DNA from: Deltaproteobacteria bacterium
Lineage (GTDB): Bacteria; Desulfobacterota; Syntrophia; Syntrophales; UBA2192
NCBI GenBank assembly: GCA_012728915.1
Contig: JAAYEC010000007.1
Location: 6,505-70,504, forward strand
Length of the DNA stretch: 64,000 bases
Reading direction: 5' to 3'
Position numbers and translations under genes: made by a program. Positions within the stretch are counted from its first letter, which is position 1, and each line of letters begins with the position of its first letter. The notes under the pieces are model-generated. The model saw nothing but the letters and a program-made list of their open reading frames with translations. It was not told where the DNA came from and ran no database searches. This document shows, one piece after another, positions 6,967 to 42,218 of the stretch.

Positions 6967-8223
6967 ATGAAGGCACGGCTTGTCACCCTGATCGCTGCGC
7001 TTCTTCTTCCCCTGAGCCTGGTTTTATCCTCGTCCACGACCGCCCAGAACCAGGACAGCTCCTGCGTCGCCTGCCACACCGACGAGGCCGCGCTGAAGAA
7101 GACCTGCAAGCCCTTCGTCAAGCCCGAGGGCGAGGCGGAAGGGTGAGCGGGGGCGCCTCCGCCGGTCAAGGCGGAGACCTTCCACCTGACGTTCCTCGTC
7201 GACAGAAAGCTCGTCGAGACGGACAGGCATTTCGAGAAGGGCTGCCTGTACTGCCACAAGGGCAATGACCGGGCCGACGACAAGGACGCCGCGCACGAGG
7301 GAATGGTGAAGCGCCCCTCGAACAACCTGTCCCTCTGCGGGGAGTGCCACCCGGAAATCGCCGCGAATTATAAAAAGTCCCTCCACTACACGACCATCGG
7401 CCAGCGCAACCGGGTGATCAGGCGGATGTCGGCAGACGAGGCGAAGATCTTCGACGAAAAGGTCTTCGAGACATCCTGCCGCTCCTGCCATGCCTCCTGC
7501 GGGGACTGCCACGTGAAATCCCCGGCCATCGGCGGGGTGAGCCTGGGCCTCATCAGCAAGCACAAGTTCGTCAGGAAGGACGAGGGCAAGACCTGCGCCT
7601 ACTGCCACGGCGGCCGGGTCTATCCCGAGTACACGGGCGAGTACGGTGGCAACGCCGACGTCCACTACCAGAAGGGCATGATGTGCATGGACTGCCACAC
7701 CATGGACGAGCTCCATGGCGACGGGAAGGCCTACCAGCTCAAGGAAGAGGTCCGCGACCGGCCCCGCTGCACCGACTGCCATGAGCCGGGCCGGGAAAAC
7801 AAGCTGACGGCCCGCGTCGGCCACCTCAAGCACAGCGAAAATGCCAGCTGCTACGCCTGCCACTCGGCGGGCGAGTACCGGCAGTGCTTCAACTGCCACG
7901 GCGGCCACTCCGAGGCCAAGCCGGGCTTCTACATCGGGACGAGCCCGCGCAACCACAGGGAGATCACCACCCTGCGCATCATCCCCACCGTGCGCGACAC
8001 GTTCAAGCCCGCCGGGATCCAGCAGGCCAACTTCGACGCCCTGCCCAACTACTGGGACTCCCCGATCCACAATATCCGCAAACGCACGGAGCGGACGCGC
8101 AACTGCGACGTCTGCCACGAAGACCGCAAGGGTTTCCTCACCATGGAGACCCTGCTGAAGGGCAGTTCGCGGGTGAACCTCGAACTGATCAAGAAACCGA
8201 AACCGATCCCCGTAAGCCAATAG
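6967..8223 (+). CDS. Periplasmic multiheme (11 CxxCH) cytochrome c selenoprotein; UGA at 7144-7146 read as Sec60
   Basis: Signal peptide and CVACH, then an in-frame TGA. The frame stays open through CLYCH into the 7303-8223 ORF, which has 9 more CxxCH. SECIS-like hairpin at 7157-7176. Confidence 0.85.
7157..7176 (+). promoter_or_regulatory. Bacterial SECIS element
   Basis: CUCCGCC-GGUCAA-GGCGGAG perfect stem starting 10 nt after the UGA; loop begins with G. Confidence 0.8.
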
Positions 8224-18633: not shown

Positions 18634-20010
18634 ATGCGGAGCGGATACCCTGCGTGCGAAATTCTGACGATCCTTCTCTGTGTCCTCGTGCAGGTCGCCC
18701 CGCCCGCCCCCGCCCATGCCCGGGAGCAGACCTTCACCCTCACCGAGGCCGTCCGTTACGCCCTGGAGCACAACAACGAGATCCGCGCCGCAGGCAGCTC
18801 CCTTGCCGCCAGGGGGGACGACGTGGGGGCGGCCCGGAGCAACCTTCTGCCAAAGGTCTATTTCGAGGAGCGCGCCCTGCGGACCAACAACCCCACCTAC
18901 GCCTTCATGGCCAAGCTCAACCAGGGCCGCTTCACGGCCCAGGACTTTGCCATTGACCGCCTCAACAACCCGAATCCCGTCAACGACTACCAGACCTTGT
19001 TCGCCGCGGAGCAGCCGATCTTCGCGCCGAAGGCGTGGGTGGGTCTGGCCATGTCGAAGCGCGAGCACGAGGCGGGCGGTGTCGAGTTCATCCGCAAAAA
19101 GGAAGAGATCGCCTTCAAGGTGTGCCGGGCCTGGCTGATGGTTCACACGGCGAAGGCGCATCTCTCGGTGGCCGAAAACGGGGTCGACGATGCCCGGGAG
19201 CACCACCGCATCGCTACGTTGCGCTACGAGGCCGACCTCGGCACGCACGCCGACACCCTGAGGGCGGCAACGGCCGCCAGCGAAGCGAAACAGCGCAGGG
19301 TCACCGCCGAGAAGCAGTTCCATCTGGCCCGGCGCATGCTCGGCCTGCTGCTGGGGCTCCCCGGGTCGGCCGACGTGGCCGGAGAGATACCGGATTTCCA
19401 GGCCCGCGACACCGGGGCGTACGAAAAGGCGTCCCGGGCGCGGGGCGACATCCGCTCCATGGAGATGAGGGTCGAGAACGCCGAGACGAACATCCGCATG
19501 GCGGAAACGGATTATCTGCCCTATATCGGGGTCGGCGGAGGCTACCAGTGGAACGACCCGTCCAATCTCTTCGGGGGCTCGGGCGACAGCTGGCAGGTCT
19601 CGGCCTTCCTGCGGTGGAATCTCTTCGACGGGGCAAGGCGCGAATATGAGCGCTCGAAGGCGAAGCACCAGGCCAGGCAGGCCCGGGAGAATCTCCTGGG
19701 GATACAGAAGGCCGCTGCCTACGGGCTCTACCAGGCGCAGCTCGGCGTCGAGGAGGCAAGGGCGAACCTGGAGCTTGCCGGGGAGGCCCTGAAGACGGCC
19801 GAGGAGGGCAAGCGGCTCGTGCAGATCCGCTACGAGAACGCCTTCTCCCCCATCGTGGACATGCTGGACGCCCAGGTCATGCTCGACAGGGCGCGTGCCG
19901 GCCTCGTGGCACGGCAGAACGAGTACCGTGTCGCCGTCCTCAACCTCGGCTGGGAGAGCGGCACGATCCTCGAGGACCTCGGCATCTCGCCGGATGAAAA
20001 GAAGGAATGA
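18634..20010 (+). CDS. TolC family outer membrane efflux protein
   Basis: EAVRYALEHN and RYE...DMLDAQ repeats; first gene of an RND operon. Confidence 0.9.
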   Translation: MRSGYPACEILTILLCVLVQVAPPAPAHAREQTFTLTEAVRYALEHNNEIRAAGSSLAARGDDVGAARSNLLPKVYFEERALRTNNPTYAFMAKLNQGRFTAQDFAIDRLNNPNPVNDYQTLFAAEQPIFAPKAWVGLAMSKREHEAGGVEFIRKKEEIAFKVCRAWLMVHTAKAHLSVAENGVDDAREHHRIATLRYEADLGTHADTLRAATAASEAKQRRVTAEKQFHLARRMLGLLLGLPGSADVAGEIPDFQARDTGAYEKASRARGDIRSMEMRVENAETNIRMAETDYLPYIGVGGGYQWNDPSNLFGGSGDSWQVSAFLRWNLFDGARREYERSKAKHQARQARENLLGIQKAAAYGLYQAQLGVEEARANLELAGEALKTAEEGKRLVQIRYENAFSPIVDMLDAQVMLDRARAGLVARQNEYRVAVLNLGWESGTILEDLGISPDEKKE

Positions 20011-21110
20011 CCATGACGGAAACGGTGGAACGGAGATGGAAGGGAAGTGCGCTCGCGGCCCTGATGGTCTCGGGCCTTCTGGCCGGCTGTGGCGACAGGA
20101 TCGCTCCCGGCACGGCGGAGGTGAAGCGGCCGGCCGTCGCCGGAGTGACCGTCGCGACCGTGCAGGCCGCGAAGGTCAGCGACGTCTACGAAACGTCGGG
20201 CACCGTGAAGGCCCGCGTTTCGAGCGTCATCGCGAGCCGGGTCATGGGGGCCGTCACGGCCGTGCACGTCCGTGCGGGCAACCGGGTCAAGGCGGGGCAG
20301 CTTCTGGCCACCCTCGATGATCGCGACGCCGCCCAGAAGGTACGCGCGGCCGAGCAGACCTTCGAGGCCGCGAAACAGGGACGCTCGATGGCCGAGCTGA
20401 CCTGGCAGCGCTACAAAAAGCTCCATGACGAAAAGGCCCTGGCGAAACAGGAAATCGACCAGATCGAGACGCAGAAGAAGGTGGCCGACGCCCGGTACGA
20501 GCAGGCGAAGGCGGGGCTCGAAGAGGCCCGCGTCTGGCAGGGCTTCACCCGGATCACGGCACCCGCCGCGGGCGTCGTGACGGACAAACGCATCGACCCC
20601 GGGAGCATGGCCATGCCGGGCGCGCCCCTGTTCACCGTCGAGAGCGAAGGCGGCTTCCAGCTGGAGGTTGCCGTGGACGAGGCCCTGTCGGGGACGATTC
20701 GGACCGGGGTGGACGCCGCCGTCGCCATCGACACCCTCGCGCTTGACATGACCGGGAAGGTCATCGAGGTCATCCCCGCGGTGGACCCGGCCACGCGGAC
20801 CTTCGTCGTCAAGATCGCACTGGCCGACCGGGGGCTCAAGAGCGGCCTGTACGCGCGGGTACGCCTGCCCCGGGGCGAGCGCGAGGCCATTCTCGTGCCC
20901 GGAGACGCCATCGTCGAGAAAGGCCAGCTCACGGGTGTCTACGCCGTCGATTCACGGGGAGTCGTGACCTATCGCCTGGTGAGGACCGGGAAGACATACG
21001 GGGGCGGCGTCGAGGTCCTCTCGGGTCTCGGCGCCGGGGAGCGGATCGTCACGGCGGGCCTGGAGAAGGCCGTCGACGGAGGCCAGCTCGGCGGGGGAGC
21101 CGCACCATGA
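20007..21110 (+). CDS. RND efflux membrane fusion lipoprotein
   Basis: LAGC lipobox, [25 protein letters not shown]. Confidence 0.92.
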
Positions 21111-24100
21111 GCGACCGCATCGGGATATCCGGCAAGATCGCCCATGCCTTCATCCGTTCGAAGCTCACCCCGCTGATCGTGATCGCATCCCTGCTGCTCG
21201 GCCTCTTTGCCGTCATCGTGACCCCCCGCGAGGAGGAGCCCCAGATCGTTGTCCCCATGGTCGACGTCACCGTGGCCTACCCCGGCGCCTCCGCGAAGGA
21301 GGTGGAGGAACGGGTCACGCGTCCCATGGAGAAGCTCCTCTGGGAGATCAAGGGCGTCGAGTACCTTTACTCCATCGTCAAACCCGGGTTCAACCTGACC
21401 ATCGTCCGGTTCTACGTGGGCGAGAGCCTGGAGGACAGCCTCGTCAAGCTCTACAACAAGCTCATGTCCAACTACGACCGGATCCCTCCCGGCGTCTCCC
21501 AGCCGATGGTCAAGGCCCGCTCCATCGACGACGTGCCCATCCTCGCGCTCACCCTCTGGAGCGAGAGCCCCCGCATCTCGGGCTACGAGCTCAGGCGGGT
21601 GGCCCTGGAGCTCTGCACGGAGATCAAGAAGGACCAGAACGTGGCCGAATTCACCGTCATCGGGGGCCAGCGCCGCCAGGCCCGGGTGATCCTCGATGCG
21701 GCCAGGCTCAAGGCACACAACGTCTCGGCCTTCCAGATCATGGACGCCCTGGGCAAGTCCAACGTCTCCCTGCCCTCCGGCAGCTACCCCTCGGGCAACC
21801 GCGAGACCCTCGTCGACACGGGAGGCCTGCTGGGAAGCGTCGACGACGCGTCCCGCGTGGTCGTGGCCGCGCACAACGGCAGGCCCGTCTACCTGGGGGA
21901 TGTCGCGACCCTCCGGGACGGCCCCGAGGAACCGGGCCACTACGTCTTCATGGGCCTCGGCCCCGCGGGCCCGCGCAGGGGCATCCCGGGGAGCGCCGCC
22001 GGGCAGAACGAGGCCGTGACGATTGCCATCGCCAAGAAAAAGGGCGCCAATGCCAGCGTCGTCGTCCGCGAGGCCCTGGCCAAGGTCGACGCGCTCCGAG
22101 GCAGCCTCGTCCCCTCGGACGTCAACGTCACCGTGACCAGAAACTACGGGGAGACGGCGAAAGAGAAGTCCGACGAGCTGCTCGATCACATGCTCATCGC
22201 CACGATCTCCGTCATCATCCTGATCGCGCTGGCCCTGGGTGCCCGCGAGGCCGCTGTCGTGGGTGTCGCGGTGCCGGTGACGCTCGCGCTCACCCTGCTC
22301 ATCAATTACCTCTATGGCTACACGCTCAACCGCGTGACCCTCTTTGCCCTCATCTTCTCCATCGGCATCCTCGTCGACGACGCGATCGTCGTCGTCGAGA
22401 ACATCCACCGGCACTTCAGGCAGCACGGCGTCGGTGTGGACACCGCGGTGAAGGCCGTCGACGAGGTGGGCAATCCCACGATCCTCGCAACCTGGACGGT
22501 CATTGCCGCGCTTCTGCCCATGGCCTTTGTCTCGGGCCTCATGGGCCCCTACATGCGCCCCATCCCCGTGGGCGCCTCGGCGGCCATGCTCTTCTCGCTC
22601 CTGGTGGCCTTCATCGTGAGCCCCTGGATGAGCTACCGCATTCTCGGAAAGGCGGGCGGAACGGCCCGTCATCGGCCCGAGAAAGACCTCTACCCCCTGT
22701 ACGAGAAGATCGTCGCCCCGTTCCTGGACAGCGCGAAGAAGAGGCGGCTGGCGCTTGCCGGCGTGGCGGGCCTTCTGCTGATCGCCATGACGCTCGTCCC
22801 GCTGAAACTCGTGACGGTGAAGATGCTGCCCTTCGACAACAAGAGCGAGATGCAGGTGATCATCGACATGCCCGAGGGCAGTACCCTCGAGAAAACGGCC
22901 GCGCTCGCGCAGGAAATGGGAGGCTTCCTGAAGCGGGTGCCCGAGGTAACCGACTACCAGCTCTACGTCGGCACAGCGGCACCCTTCAACTTCAACGGCC
23001 TGGTGCGACACTATTTCCTGCGGGCCGGGGCGAACGTCGCCGACATCCAGGTCAACCTCGTCTCCAAGGACGAGCGCAGGGAGCAGAGCCACGACATCGC
23101 CAAACGCCTGCGGCCGGGTCTCAAGGAAATCGGCGACCGTTACGGCGCCCGGATCAAGGTGGCCGAGATCCCGCCGGGGCCGCCCGTGCTGAGCACACTC
23201 GTGGCCGAGGTGTACGGGCCCGACACGGATCGGCAGATCGAGATCGCCCGCCGGATCCGCGACATCTTCGAGCAGACCCCCGGCGTCGTGGACGTGGACT
23301 GGTACGTCGAGGCCGATCAAAAAAAACTCCTTTTCGAGGCGAACCGGACGAAAGCAGCTGAGAGCGGCATTTCCACGGAGGCCCTTGCCCTGAGCATGCG
23401 CATCGCGCTGTCGGGAGCCGTGGCGGGCCTGGTGCATCTCGAGAAGGAAAAGGAGCCCGTGGAGATCTTCCTGCGCATGCCCCTGGAGGAGCGGGCCTAT
23501 CCCCCGGCCCTGCGGTCCCTCAGCGTCCCCTCCAGGCTCGGCGGGCAGGTCCCCCTGGCCGAGCTGGTCAGCGTGCGCGAGGGCGTAGGAGAGAAGACGA
23601 TCTACCACAAGAACCTCAAGAACGTGACCTACGTCATCGGCGACGTGGCGGGCACCGAGGAGAGCCCCGTCTATGCCATCCTGAAGATGAAGGATGCCGT
23701 GAAGCAGATCCGGCTCCCCGAGGGCTACGAGCTCAGGCAGTACGACGCGGTCCAGCCGTGGCTCGAGCAAACCTACTCGATGAAGTGGGACGGCGAGTGG
23801 CAGGTCACGATCGAGGTCTTCCGCGACCTCGGCATCGCGTTTGCCGCCGTCCTCGTCATCATCTACATCCTGGTGGTGGCCTGGTTCCGGAATTTCGTCA
23901 CGCCGATCGTCATCATGACCCCCATCCCGCTCACCCTGGTGGGGATCCTTCCGGGCCACTGGATCTTCGGGGCCTTTTTCACGGCCACCTCCATGATCGG
24001 CTTCATCGCCCTGTCGGGCATCATCGTTCGAAACTCCATCCTGCTCGTGGATTTTGCCGAGCACGAGTGGCGCGGCGGCCAGGACCTCCGGCATGCCCTC

Positions 24101-24325
24101 CTGAAGGCAGGCGCCGTCCGGTTCAGGCCCATCGCGCTCACGGCGGCGGCCGTCGTGGCGGGCTCCTTCGTCATGATCTTCGATCCCATCTTCCAGGGCC
24201 TGGCGATCGCCATGATGTTCGGCGCCGTGGCGGCCACGGGGCTCACGCTCGTCGTGATCCCCCTTCTCTACTACGAATTCTTCCGCAACCGGATACCGGA
24301 GAACGCGCAGGGAGGCCTGTCATGA
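21107..24325 (+). CDS. RND efflux permease
   Basis: [28 protein letters not shown]. Confidence 0.95.
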
Positions 24326-24519
24326 AAATGGAACAATGGATTCGCGCGATCGCCGGCACCTTCGTCCTCGTCTCCGTGGCGCTGGGCTGGTTCGTGAACC
24401 GGTACTGGCTGCTTTTTACCGCCTTCGTCGGGCTCAATCTCCTGCAGTCGGCATTCACGAGGTGGTGCCTCATGGAGAAGATCCTCGGACGGTTGGGGGT
24501 CACGGATCCATCGGCATAG
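24322..24519 (+). CDS. DUF2892 / YgaP-like small membrane protein
   Basis: [12 protein letters not shown]...[25 protein letters not shown] overlap with the permease gene. Confidence 0.88.
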
Positions 24520-24591
24520 AAAGCCCCCGGACGGGGCCGTCTTCGACGACGGCAGGCCATGCGCGCGTTGTCCGACCGATCGGGAGCCGCC

Positions 24592-25425
24592 ATGACGATC
24601 GCTGAATTGACCGGATTCATCTTCGCAGGGGCCGTCTTCGCCGGTTTCATCGGATCGATCACCGGCCTGGGCGGCGGCGTCGTCCTCGTGCCCCTGCTCG
24701 CCCTGGGCTTCGGGGTCGACATGCGCTACGCCATCGGGGCCTCCCTCGTCTCGGTGATCGCCACGTCGTCGGGGGCGGCCGTGGCATACGTCCGGGAAGG
24801 CTACACCAACATCCGCGCCGGCATGTTCCTGGAGGTGGCCACCGTGCTCGGCGGCACGTTGGGCGCGCACCTGACCACGCGGGTGGCGACGGGCCGGATC
24901 GCCATCGTCTTCGGATTCGTCCTGCTGTTCTCCCTCATTCCCTTCCGGGCATCGCCCGCCGGGGAGCGCGGCGAAAAAGCAGATCCCCTGGCCGCGCGGC
25001 TCCGATTCGACTCGAGCTATCCCGCGGATGAAGGGCCGCAGGGATATCGCGTCCGGCGGGTGCCGCTGGGATTCTCGCTCATGGCCCTTGCGGGAACCCT
25101 GTCGGGGCTGCTGGGAATCGGCTCGGGCGCCGTGAAGGTCCTGGCCATGGACCGCGCCATGGGGTTTCCCTTCAAGGTGTCCACGACGACGAGCAACTTC
25201 ATGATCGGCGTCACCGCCGCGGCCGGCGCGGGCATCTACCTGAACAAGGGATACATCGATCCCGGGCTGGCGATGCCGACCATGCTGGGTGTCCTGCTCG
25301 GCGCATTTCTCGGGACACGCGTCCTGCTGGGGGCGCAAACCCGGGTCTTGCGGTGGGTGTTCAGCCTGGTGATCCTGGCCCTCGGCCTGGAGATGATCGT
25401 CAACGGGTTTCTGGGAAGGCTGTAA
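24592..25425 (+). CDS. TauE/SafE (TSUP) sulfite exporter family protein
   Basis: GLGGGVVLVP, SGLLGIGSG and STTTSNFMIG motifs. Confidence 0.9.
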   Translation: MTIAELTGFIFAGAVFAGFIGSITGLGGGVVLVPLLALGFGVDMRYAIGASLVSVIATSSGAAVAYVREGYTNIRAGMFLEVATVLGGTLGAHLTTRVATGRIAIVFGFVLLFSLIPFRASPAGERGEKADPLAARLRFDSSYPADEGPQGYRVRRVPLGFSLMALAGTLSGLLGIGSGAVKVLAMDRAMGFPFKVSTTTSNFMIGVTAAAGAGIYLNKGYIDPGLAMPTMLGVLLGAFLGTRVLLGAQTRVLRWVFSLVILALGLEMIVNGFLGRL

Positions 25426-25426
25426 A

Positions 25427-25813
25427 ATGCGGCAGGGTCATGAACGTCCGGAGGGCGTGCGGATGGAGCGGATGATCAGCCTTCTGCTCCGGGTCGGCGT
25501 CGTCGCCGCCTCGGCCCTGGTCCTGGCGGGTGGACTGCACTACCTGCATCAATACGGAGGCGGCGTTCCCCACTACGGGGTCTTCCAGGGAGAGCCCGCC
25601 TCGCTGCGCACGCTCGGCGGCATCCTGGGCGCGGCGGCACACCTCGACAGCCGGGCCCTGATCCAGTTCGGCCTGCTGCTGCTCATCCTGACGCCCGTTG
25701 CCCGCGTCGTTTTTTCCGTGGCGGCCTTCGCCCTCCAGCGCGATCGCCTCTACGTGTGCGTCACGCTGCTCGTTCTCGCGGTCCTCCTGTACAATCTCCG
25801 CTGGCCGCATTGA
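25427..25813 (+). CDS. DUF1634 membrane protein
   Basis: ISLLLRVGV and GLLLLILTPVARV; usual partner of TauE. Confidence 0.85.
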   Translation: MRQGHERPEGVRMERMISLLLRVGVVAASALVLAGGLHYLHQYGGGVPHYGVFQGEPASLRTLGGILGAAAHLDSRALIQFGLLLLILTPVARVVFSVAAFALQRDRLYVCVTLLVLAVLLYNLRWPH

Positions 25814-25837: not shown

Positions 25838-26923
25838 TCAGTCCCCGATGCGCCAGCACTGCGGATCGTCGGCAAAGAGGTCCGCCCGTCCCCGGGCGCG
25901 GCTCCACGCATAGGCCACGGCGCGGCAGCCGCGGCACGACGGCCAGTACGAACAGCTGCCGCAATGCCCCCTGTAGCTCGAGCGGTCTCTGAGCCTCCAG
26001 AGCGTCCTCGATGTCGCCCAGATGTCGCGCAGGCTTTTCCGCCTGAGGTTTCCCACGGAGATCCCGATGCGGCGGCAGGGCATCACCGCGCCGTCGCTTG
26101 CGATCGTCACGCCGGAGAAGCCGGCGCTGCAGCCGGAGAGGGTCAGCCCGCAATCCGCCGGGGGCGCACCGCCCCGGAGCGTCCCGGCCAGGGGATCGCC
26201 CGAGACCACGGGAAAGCCGGGTGCATCGAGGGACAGGACCTTCTCGTAGGCGCCGCGGACCTCGCCGGGGGACAGAACGCTTTCGAGCAGCGCGCCGCCG
26301 CTCCCGCAGGGAACGAGGCGCGAAAACCCGATCGAGCCGAACCCCGCATCGCGGGCAATCTTCACGGTCTCTTCGATGAGCGGCGCGTTGAGCCTCGACA
26401 GGGTCACGTTGGCGCTCACACAGTTCCCCGCCCGCGCCAGGCGCTCCGCCGCCCTCAGGGCGGAAAGAAAACTCCCTTCCCCGCGGATCGAGTCGTGAAG
26501 CGCCGGCGGTCCCTCGAGGCTGACCTGGATCTCGGACACGTCCAGGTCCCTGAATCGACGGGCCTCTTCGTCCGTGACGAGACAGCCGTTCGTCATGACG
26601 GCCACCCGGCAGCCGGAGACCCTGGCATGGCGCACCACGTCCCAGAAACCCCGGTAAAGAAGAGGCTCGCCCCCCGTGAAGTGGATCGACGGGGACACCC
26701 GGACATCCTGCTCCGACTCCCAGGCCCGGAACATCCGGACGGCCCCGTCGATTTCGTCGCACACCTCTCCCGCGGTCATCTCGAGCGGCCTCCTCGGGCC
26801 CTGATAGCAATGGCGGCACCGCAGGTTGCACCGCTCCGTCAGATGCCACTGGATGAAAAAATCAAAGGTCTGAATTGCCGAACCGGCAATTATGGTTTCT
26901 TTCACTTCTTTCAGCTGAAGCAT
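25838..26923 (-). CDS. Radical SAM/SPASM domain protein, probable peptide maturase (alternative GTG start at 26905)
   Basis: CNLRCRHC and TGGEPL; SPASM CSAG...MPC...GNL...CGSC....SCRGCRA...DPQC. Confidence 0.92.
   Translation of the reverse strand: MLQLKEVKETIIAGSAIQTFDFFIQWHLTERCNLRCRHCYQGPRRPLEMTAGEVCDEIDGAVRMFRAWESEQDVRVSPSIHFTGGEPLLYRGFWDVVRHARVSGCRVAVMTNGCLVTDEEARRFRDLDVSEIQVSLEGPPALHDSIRGEGSFLSALRAAERLARAGNCVSANVTLSRLNAPLIEETVKIARDAGFGSIGFSRLVPCGSGGALLESVLSPGEVRGAYEKVLSLDAPGFPVVSGDPLAGTLRGGAPPADCGLTLSGCSAGFSGVTIASDGAVMPCRRIGISVGNLRRKSLRDIWATSRTLWRLRDRSSYRGHCGSCSYWPSCRGCRAVAYAWSRARGRADLFADDPQCWRIGD
26873..26891 (-). promoter_or_regulatory. Putative SECIS element for the upstream peptide
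   Basis: AAUUGCC-GGUUC-GGCAAUU, 19 nt after UGA 26911-26913 and 10 nt after UGA 26902-26904. Confidence 0.55.
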
Positions 26924-27018
26924 TGCCTGCCAGAATCCGCGGACCTCATCAGGGCCCAGAACTTCGCCTCGCGGCGCCTGGCCTTCTCGCTCAGCCCGAC
27001 CTTTTTGTTGGTCCTCAT
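26890..27018 (-). CDS. Putative RiPP precursor peptide, possibly Sec-containing: MRTNKKVGLSEKARRREAKFWALMRSADSGRQCFS-U-KK-U-KKP
   Basis: Strong RBS (AAAGGGGGTG) before ATG 27018; two in-frame TGA, then TAA; abuts the rSAM/SPASM gene. Confidence 0.6.
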
Positions 27019-27204
27019 CCGGTTCACCCCCTTTCGTTCTCATGTGCCTGGGAATGTGAATCATCCGGGCCGCTGCGCGCCCGGTACGTTTCGTCTCCCG
27101 GTTTCATCCCCGCCGAGGGGCTCCGGCAGGCCAATGGCCCGCGATTGTCTTTCGACTCTTTCCGCGTGCTCCGCCCTTTCGCCCCTTCCCGGCCGGCGTC
27201 TTCC

Positions 27205-41700: not shown

Positions 41701-42218
41701 CGCCTGTCACCTCCGTAGAGAATCCGCGCCGTGACGACGCCGGCCCCGAAGAAACAGATCAGGGCGATGTAGCCGCTCACCGCTATTTGAGCCAGACCGC
41801 TCAAACCGTGGCCGCTCGGTCACCCGTCGGCCATTCGGGCCCCGAACATCAGCACGATGCCCCCGAGAAAGGCCGCAGCCCAGCGTTTCGCCCCCGAGGA
41901 CCCGAATCGGGCTTCCCACATGGGCGGCACAGGGGTCGACCGAAAGTCTTTCGTGAAGACCGCTGCCGCCAGGGCGCCGAAGAAGATCCCCACGACGAAC
42001 ATCCACTGCCACTCGATCTTGATTTTTTCCTTCTTGTAGTACTCCTGCCCCGTCGCATGCCCCGGCGCGACAGCCTGTTCGACCATTCCCGCCGCTCGGA
42101 CAAAGGTTGTCGAGGCGCCGAAATACTTGCCCGTCAGGAATACGGACATCACCAGCAGCACTCCCGCCAGGGCCCCGGCGATGTAAGGGGACCAGCCCCT
42201 GCGCGTCATGACTTTCAT
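41697..42218 (-). CDS. YeeE/YedE transporter, first half; selenoprotein (UGA 41820-41822 = Sec133)
   Basis: WSPYIAG...GARMADG-TGA-PSGHGLSG matches the family G-C-x-SGH motif. The frame continues 40 codons to an ATGA overlap with the partner gene; SECIS present. Confidence 0.9.
41786..41805 (-). promoter_or_regulatory. Bacterial SECIS element
   Basis: UUUGAGC-GGUCUG-GCUCAAA, 14 nt after the UGA. Confidence 0.8.

Follow-up and report, generated by a model that had tools for sequence, protein, structure and literature searches.

Background

The closest described systems to the one considered here, a peptide gene and a neighbouring enzyme gene on a 64,000-nucleotide (nt) stretch of a Deltaproteobacteria bacterium of the order Syntrophales (assembly GCA_012728915.1, contig JAAYEC010000007.1, positions 6,505 to 70,504), are the selenobacteriocins SbtA/SbtM (TIGR04081/TIGR04082). 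In both, a short peptide with at least two selenocysteine (Sec, U) residues, predicted ones here, and a selenocysteine insertion sequence (SECIS) is encoded beside an enzyme of the radical S-adenosylmethionine (SAM)/SPASM type, and both occur in anaerobic deltaproteobacterial lineages (PMC9204691, excerpts; PMC13188914, Table 1). SbtM turns Cys or Sec into a thio(seleno)oxazole by oxidation at C-beta (-4 Da, 304 nm), and the authors of that work prefer a model in which Cys is bound by an auxiliary cluster (PMC9204691, excerpts). A second reference group is formed by CteB, PapB, Tte1186 and SkfB, whose natural substrates carry Cys and no encoded Sec, and which were shown to accept Sec-substituted peptides; in PapB and Tte1186 the substrate selenium is bound at an open iron, and Sec peptides are converted to selenoethers (PMC10177961, excerpts). 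Among the 119 families in Table 1 of PMC13188914, selenobacteriocin (SGUG) is the sole entry that cites a study on peptides that are made by ribosomes and modified after translation (RiPPs).

The feature lies on the minus strand of the window, as we call the whole 64,000-nt stretch, to whose positions all coordinates refer. The original prediction for this DNA had left the strand unstated and had proposed a hidden C-x-x-U-x-x-U peptide coupled to a radical SAM/SPASM enzyme and preceded by a strong ribosome-binding site. Translation of 27018..26890 with TGA as U gives exactly the 42 residues it had quoted, including C33, U36, U39 and the closing TAA, and a purine-rich site was indeed found 6 nt from the ATG (GGAGGTG in most homologues of the peptide gene). 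Judged by the comparison of homologous loci, the pair is real and conserved, consisting of a two-Sec peptide that lacks annotation and a radical SAM/SPASM enzyme dedicated to it. Its features are the following:

27025..27032, minus strand: ribosome-binding site AGGGGGTG, purine-rich, ending 6 nt before the peptide ATG
26890..27018, minus strand: peptide gene, 42 codons plus TAA, translated with TGA as U
26920..26922, minus strand: Cys33 codon, TGC/TGT in 123 of 124 loci
26911..26913, minus strand: UGA36, predicted Sec (TGA 121, TGC 3; n = 124)
26902..26904, minus strand: UGA39, predicted Sec (TGA 122, TAA 1, TAG 1; n = 124; never Cys)
26873..26891, minus strand: SECIS-type hairpin, which in the window falls within the opening codons of the enzyme gene
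26921..26923, minus strand: conserved -1-frame ATG over the Cys33 codon, candidate enzyme start from the comparison of loci
25838..26923, minus strand: radical SAM/SPASM gene, about 350-361 residues, without an N-terminal RiPP recognition element (RRE); start uncertain
26807..26830, minus strand: CxxxCxxC motif of the SAM cluster, invariant in 130 sequences
25856..26131, minus strand: SPASM region with seven invariant Cys, C-x17-C ... C-x2-C-x5-C-x2-C-x22-C

Two in-frame UGA codons in the peptide gene

The peptide has a basic N-terminal part with conserved E17 and [FY]20-W21, followed by the core C33-x-x-U36-K-x-U39-K40. Database gene calls end it at residue 35, with 118 of the 120 proteins among the matches listed terminating in C-x-x, and no NCBIfam or Pfam family matched it consistently. 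Homologous loci were collected with the enzyme as query (the best 80 of 90 loci, one of them without upstream DNA), and profile searches of samples of two phyla enlarged the set to 124 distinct loci after removal of duplicates; these are mutually related, and their counts are not independent events. Codon 33 is TGC in 95, TGT in 28 and AAT in one, while codon 36 is TGA in all but three loci, which have TGC. Codon 39 is TGA in 122 loci (TAA and TAG once each), compared with a near-even mix at the true stop (TGA 48, TAA 43, TAG 32, and one outside the range searched). Codon 40 is Lys throughout (AAG 68, AAA 56), a residue that the search pattern demanded for the first 97 loci, missing only two peptide-less loci (105/107), and did not demand for the 33 later ones. 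This matches what the original prediction had proposed to look for in orthologues, namely conserved TGA with a hairpin, or Cys codons.

The two TGAs do not depend on an overlap with the enzyme gene. There are 47 loci in which the start of the enzyme is about 100-450 nt farther downstream; in these, UGA36 is kept in 47/47 and UGA39 in 46/47. For the two codons after UGA39, the synonymous share of single-base differences among non-overlapping loci reaches 0.93 in the frame of the peptide, while the two remaining frames give 0.29 and 0.42. An origin of the TGAs as by-products of the enzyme frame was rejected, since they persist in separated loci and the synonymous changes sit in the peptide frame. 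E17, W21, C33 and K40 are likewise conserved as amino acids while their codons vary synonymously. UGA36 aligns with Cys not only in the three loci mentioned (one of them L064), but also in the variants P0259 and P0295. Because variants lacking Cys33 mostly carry Cys36 (L064, P0259, P0295), and because the variants with a stop at 39 (L030, L088) retain C33-x-x-U36, the minimal conserved unit looks like C-x-x-U; in P0289, Cys33 is lost and the peptide terminates at residue 35. One genome, G403, has two copies of the pair (L058 and L030) with C-x-x-C-x-x-U and C-x-x-U-x-x-stop, one Sec each.

From these patterns, both UGAs very probably encode Sec, which makes a 38-residue peptide unlikely as the main product. 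The original prediction had considered such a product plausible, with UGA39 as the stop that couples translation to the enzyme; this is disfavoured by the retention of UGA39 in separated loci and by the protein-like evolution of the codons behind it.

A single SECIS-type hairpin and the selenocysteine machinery

As had been claimed, the hairpin begins 19 nt downstream of UGA36 and 10 nt downstream of UGA39, which places its GGU loop at 26 and 17 nt, respectively. The bacterial SECIS model of PMC13188914 describes a stem of 4-16 bp, a G early in a loop of 3-9 nt, an energy of at most -7.5 kcal/mol and a loop 16-37 nt from the UGA; the hairpin of the peptide gene (-8.7 kcal/mol, loop at 17/26 nt, with covariation) falls within these ranges. 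At a single locus it is unremarkable (z of -1.0 to -2.2), and our SECIS filter let through 8 of the 1604 TGA triplets of the window and 99 of the 73,884 of the genome, with UGA36 and UGA39 among them. Across loci, 91 of 97 distinct ones have a hairpin of -6 kcal/mol or lower behind UGA39, compared with 3-8 of 93-96 for six control windows placed upstream, and in 91/97 the loop lies 15-18 nt from UGA39. In the covariation analysis of 46 non-overlapping loci (L088 omitted, and twelve rows with four-base loops misaligned at two pairs), 92.5% of cells were paired, with changes on both sides in 6 of 7 pairs; slid controls paired in 15-56%, and none of 500 shuffles, which ignore kinship, matched the pairing of the hairpin. 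L088 has TAG as codon 39, and its loop has shifted to 19 nt from UGA36, as would be expected of a spacing that is set by the last Sec. Because both 17 and 26 nt are within the published range of 16-37 nt, one hairpin bound by SelB would serve both UGAs, and we regard the insertion of two Sec from one SECIS as highly probable from this comparison.

Loop spacings at other Sec genes of this genome are 17, 17 and 21 nt, one of the 17-nt values being that of selD, read by eye. The original prediction had likened the hairpin to two other SECIS elements in the window; the form is indeed shared (7-8 bp stem, GGU loop), while the sequences differ. These two elements are observations in their own right. 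At 7144 on the plus strand (end of the open reading frame (ORF) at 8223), a multihaem cytochrome c carries a TGA in frame, behind which stands a 7-bp SECIS-type hairpin with its loop at 17 nt, and it is a probable selenoprotein by this signature. At 41822 on the minus strand (ORF start at 42218), a YeeE/YedE-like membrane protein has a hairpin loop at 21 nt and a G-U-x-S-G motif, which is listed in PMC13188914, and a second YeeE-like ORF comes after it. An Rfam scan gave no family at the peptide and hairpin locus. A role of the hairpin as a terminator was rejected, as the terminator scan flags only the opposite strand, at chance level.

The host genome has selA, selB and selD above cut-off as well as tRNA-Sec, the machinery whose presence the original prediction had wanted confirmed. 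A test for co-occurrence with selA is uninformative in the host phylum (24/26 carriers against 371/401 genomes overall), and it was therefore repeated in a phylum with patchy selA. In this second phylum (that of G401, Nitrospirae), selA is found in 43/47 carriers against 74/194 non-carriers, with a Fisher p of 7e-12 that is inflated by kinship.

Peptide and enzyme form a two-gene unit

By their titles, the enzyme loci belong to Syntrophales, other Thermodesulfobacteriota/deltaproteobacteria, Nitrospirota, Geobacteraceae and one Actinomycetota. Within the best 80 of 90, the peptide lies upstream of the enzyme in 78 of the 79 loci having upstream DNA, and in the lone exception it is on another contig of the same genome. 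In the sampled host phylum, peptide and enzyme occur in the identical 27 of 401 genomes (about 7%) and are adjacent in all 27 loci read. The second phylum, in which about 20% of the sampled genomes carry the family, has 47 genomes with the peptide and 48 with the enzyme, 46 being common to both; the singletons are one peptide-only genome (at a contig end) and two enzyme-only genomes (one enzyme broken). The association of peptide and enzyme that had been predicted is supported. No relative of the enzyme was found on viral contigs.

When ORFs of at least 80 residues around these 80 loci were clustered, no third conserved gene emerged: antisense shadows of the enzyme aside, the largest neighbour clusters cover 13 loci, and no RRE, protease or exporter is conserved with the pair, in agreement with the earlier remark that no separate PqqD/RRE gene is nearby. 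Peptide and enzyme are, on locus comparison, a conserved two-gene unit, and they show what generally marks radical SAM RiPP systems, a short conserved gene with leader and core next to one dedicated enzyme. The observations that the original prediction had named as speaking against it (orthologous loci without the peptide, homologous peptides stopping at C-F-S without a hairpin, no Sec machinery) are not what these searches returned.

The start of the enzyme gene is less clear. Candidates in the window are ATG 26923, GTG 26905 and ATA 26893, and the start of the longest ORF, 27064, is not conserved. The overlap of a GTG start with the second TGA, which had been pointed out before, is present at 26905, as only one of these three options. 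In the 50 loci where the genes overlap, the enzyme-frame codon at Cys33 is ATG in 45, GTG/TTG lies at UGA39 in 32, and the codon at the final stop is ATG in 19 and ATA in 24 (window included). A start codon covers UGA39 or the final stop in 47/50, the two options being anti-correlated (27, 15, 5, 3), and seven loci have an in-frame stop just before the final-stop ATG and so start there. An A precedes the Cys33 codon in 90% of overlap loci and in 86% of the other 74, compared with 10-14% one codon earlier; the -1 frame from the Cys33 ATG is open for at least 16 codons in 72/74 non-overlap loci, and two Nitrospirota loci open the enzyme frame from it independently. Our leading guess is that the conserved -1-frame ATG is a re-initiation site, though a slow codon or an RNA constraint may underlie it instead.

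The enzyme and its relation to known families

CxxxCxxC, GGE and the seven SPASM Cys are invariant in 130 sequences, and PF04055 and PF13186 are present on all 120 relatives among the matches listed. No more than about 25 residues separate the enzyme start from the radical SAM domain. The enzyme reached no NCBIfam family at cut-off; its scores (bits/cut-off) are 160/500 for AhbD, 149/400 for ACGX, 132/400 for GeoRSP, 125/350 for SbtM (TIGR04082), 120/265 for MftC, 90/625 for StsB, 65/340 for PapB and 61/300 for SkfB. AhbD/NirJ, ACGX and GeoRSP, which score highest, are of similar length and share the C-x2-C-x5-C-x2-C spacing, but the enzyme stays far below their cut-offs. An identity as haem synthase AhbD (TIGR04545) was rejected, as a separate AhbD gene scores 544 and no haem genes are conserved at the locus. 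Also in this genome (G000), contig C14 carries ScmE and ScmF of a SynChlorMet cassette (L003, L005) above cut-off.

With regard to SbtM, five loci of the enzyme score 124-157 bits against TIGR04082, and the enzyme of the window lacks the first ~198 of 516 model positions. Sec occupies GGUG/SGUG in the selenobacteriocins, whereas here it is found in C-x-x-U-K-x-U-K at the extreme C-terminus; none of 36 peptide members matched TIGR04081 ('selenobacteriocin') at E up to 1, and the GGUG/SGUG motif is absent from them. By these sequence comparisons, the pair would work like SbtA/SbtM yet is outside that family. A TIGR04082 match above cut-off does occur in G380 (L206, on C72), seemingly damaged in that it is missing a SPASM Cys as well as the initial Cys of the SAM motif, and the same genome also carries the peptide-enzyme pair.

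The CteB/PapB/Tte1186/SkfB group shares the seven-Cys SPASM layout. CteB uses three Cys as ligands of its first auxiliary cluster and another four for the second (PMC10177961, excerpts), and because the Cys layout was compared with that of CteB, the first auxiliary cluster of our enzyme is predicted to be held by three Cys and to have an open iron site. SkfB and CteB are the top matches among solved structures in both sequence and fold, with the difference that the enzyme is 15-22% identical to the group, has no N-terminal RRE and scores low against PapB and SkfB. As the matches in the PDB include no SbtM-like enzyme, fold ranks cannot decide the chemistry; the AlphaFold model has a pLDDT (predicted local distance difference test) of 72.7 and is poor in the SPASM part, below 50 at residues 235-253 and 265-291. 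Unlike ranthipeptide and sactipeptide systems, the pair has no conserved Asp, Glu or Thr acceptor in the peptide and no PqqD-like partner.

A separate radical SAM/SPASM group of the second phylum (L199-L202, in G511, G491, G539 and G622), which ranks next behind the enzyme's own group and is 32-36% identical to the enzyme, is encoded directly behind membrane proteins with repeated C-S-G-C (C-x-x-C) tails; the one scanned is TIGR04222. The four enzymes group together in the tree, with a placement that is not resolved, and they are possibly radical SAM modifiers of tails that are usually tied to oxidative enzymes which depend on multinuclear non-haem iron (MNIO enzymes). TIGR04222 proteins are a proposed class of MNIO substrates, and the Cys-derived thiooxazoles of bufferins chelate copper (PMC12452194, excerpts). 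Apart from these C-x-x-C tails adjoining the nearest outside enzyme group, the likeness of our pair to the bufferin and TIGR04222-MNIO systems is possibly a functional analogy only, and the pair differs in using the radical SAM superfamily instead of MNIO, in lacking a signal peptide, in its Sec and in its anaerobic hosts.

Two Sec three residues apart also occur in the UxxU selenoproteins of PMC13188914, Table 1 (Prx-like, the metal-binding protein NF041115, FmdB), but these are folded proteins, with no sequence match to the ~40-residue peptide that is paired with a radical SAM enzyme here. A C-x-x-U-x-x-U peptide is absent from that table of 119 families; the accessible part of BSepDB (PMC13326102) gave no match for 'radical SAM' or 'UxxU', and the passages found of the Haft and Gwadz preprint (10.1101/2022.07.06.499078) do not mention the system. 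Literature listings contained no description of it either, with most subscription papers beyond reach, so that its absence from print is not proven.

Proposed function and alternative explanations

Our preferred reading, to which we assign a probability of roughly 0.4, is that the Cys-x-x-Sec-Lys-x-Sec-Lys peptide is the substrate of the enzyme, which would convert its Cys and Sec to thio- and seleno-oxazoles and so yield a predicted intracellular metal-binding peptide. That the enzyme modifies the peptide at all is likely. It would need no separate RRE to recognise the leader, E-x-x-[FY]-W, and would bind selenium or sulfur at the open iron of the first auxiliary cluster, a step that we also consider likely. 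Given this step, we guess, at slightly better than even odds, that the 5'-deoxyadenosyl radical would take the C-beta hydrogen of Sec or Cys, with the backbone closing to a ring, as with SbtM. We further guess that the product would chelate a soft metal or act in redox through C-x-x-U, and that it would stay in the cell because there is no conserved protease, exporter or signal peptide. Oxazoles are slightly favoured over selenoethers on three grounds: the family scores, the TIGR04222 proteins beside related enzymes, and Sec39 having no acceptor at i+4. A more speculative extension, which we consider doubtful, is that the system makes an obligately Sec-dependent RiPP, a bis-selenooxazole metal chelator that would be an oxygen-free counterpart of bufferins, in which, at overlapping loci, SECIS and -1-frame ATG would tie translation of the enzyme to how Sec insertion turns out.

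Several observations weigh against this reading. The peptide lacks the Gly-Sec motif at which SbtM acts (PMC9204691, excerpts), the enzyme is only 29% identical (over 276 residues) to an SbtM-family protein, its best fold matches are SkfB, anSME, CteB and SuiB, at 15-22% identity, and a 29-row tree built without SbtM leaves the deep order unresolved. The peptide is not beside the enzyme in at least three genomes (G404, G543, G640), and G429 has an intact enzyme and no peptide match. Four carriers in the second phylum have no match to selA or selB (two of them have tRNA-Sec, and two have selD with its own TGA), and one of the four, G556, has none of four Sec markers above cut-off, all of these being genomes of unstated completeness. 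Cys at position 39 was found neither in the 124 loci nor in the 120 listed or 81 representative database proteins, so that the classical Sec/Cys swap is shown for position 36 alone; an all-Cys full-length form did not appear in two profile searches of predicted proteins. A metagenome pattern for the P-G-K-x-C subgroup only gave 11 matches, of which 9 resemble zinc-dehydrogenase sites and 2 are chance, none being a Cys39 form. Finally, the C-x3-K spacing of the core parallels the CX3D of PapB (PMC10739248, excerpts), and Lys40 is invariant.

The last two points lead to the first alternative, which retains the two-Sec peptide and has the enzyme form selenoether or thioether cross-links of the ranthi- or sactipeptide type (for example from Cys33 to residue 37 and from Sec36 to Lys40, i to i+4), the chemistry that the original prediction had proposed. 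It draws further on the SPASM layout that the enzyme shares with CteB and the selenoether-forming PapB (as also Tte1186; PMC10177961, excerpts) and on SkfB and CteB as top matches among solved structures. Residue 37 is not Lys in 6/124 loci, though, Sec39, the most conserved chalcogen, is followed by only 2-4 residues and has no i+4 partner, and PapB, SkfB and StsB score between about one half and three quarters as high as SbtM; we consider cross-linking somewhat less probable than oxazole formation.

Rather less probable still is that the Sec peptide is a partner and no substrate, binding an iron-sulfur cluster or metal or carrying electrons or selenium, while the enzyme acts on a small molecule. 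The CxxCxxC motif of ferredoxins has a spacing akin to the three-ligand C-x-x-U-x-x-U of the peptide. AhbD, the best NCBIfam score, is a small-molecule enzyme, the absence of a conserved protease or exporter would suit such a role, and the C-x-x-U pair that alone is retained in variants is the redox motif commonly seen in selenoproteins (PMC13188914, Table 1). Against it, no small-molecule pathway genes are conserved around the pair, and the nearest outside enzymes likewise stand beside C-x-x-C tails. Moreover, most separated loci have, by eye, a long terminator-like hairpin with a T-run between SECIS and enzyme, which suggests an excess of peptide, as in precursor-maturase loci.

The same terminator-like hairpin can be taken to favour a mainly regulatory leader, in which read-through or stalling at the two UGAs acts as a selenium sensor and governs the enzyme gene through attenuation or translational coupling, as can the SECIS-type hairpin covering the enzyme start in the 50 overlap loci, the anti-correlated start codons there, and the -1-frame ATG that is conserved even in separated loci. 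This is improbable in view of the residues (E17, W21, C33, K40) that are conserved as amino acids despite synonymous variation, of an enzyme that contains no Sec of its own and is not evidently connected with selenium metabolism, and of a peptide gene that persists apart from the enzyme in three genomes. Very improbable is that only UGA36 encodes Sec, with UGA39 as the stop of a 38-residue peptide whose translation would be coupled to the enzyme's GTG: the frequent GTG/TTG over UGA39 (32/50) and the two loci with TAA/TAG and never Cys at 39 are compatible with it, but a codon that is TGA in 122/124, unlike the mixed true stop, an invariant Lys40 written with both codons, and a loop whose distance from UGA39 matches that at the other Sec genes of the genome all speak for decoding. 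That no recoding occurs, leaving a precursor of 35 residues with one Cys and, behind it, a conserved stretch that is non-coding, has next to no likelihood: the gene calls that end there and a hairpin that is weak on its own would agree with it, but TGC at codon 36 in 3 loci, the coding signature past both UGAs, the covariation of the hairpin and the enrichment of selA do not.

Other genes in the window

On the plus strand at 18634-25813, ORFs that read like outer-membrane efflux, membrane-fusion and resistance-nodulation-division pump proteins, together with a small membrane protein and a sulfite-exporter-type protein, converge on the enzyme gene. These names come from reading the ORFs and not from scans to cut-off, and the run is not conserved at other loci. 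A cyclic di-GMP-I riboswitch lies at 201-292 on the minus strand (71.8 bits).

Significance

If the enzyme modifies the peptide as predicted, the pair would be a second family of selenium-containing modified peptides, unrelated to selenobacteriocin, the one entry with a RiPP citation in the 2026 catalogue of 119 prokaryotic families. As a minimal two-gene system, it would require just a single enzyme and a synthetic 42-mer for testing, it would offer a natural substrate for the selenium-iron chemistry at SPASM clusters that has so far been studied with engineered Sec peptides, and it is a compact test case for one bacterial SECIS decoding two UGAs nine bases apart. Encoded-selenium natural products would then be commoner than databases imply, since gene callers cut the peptide short.

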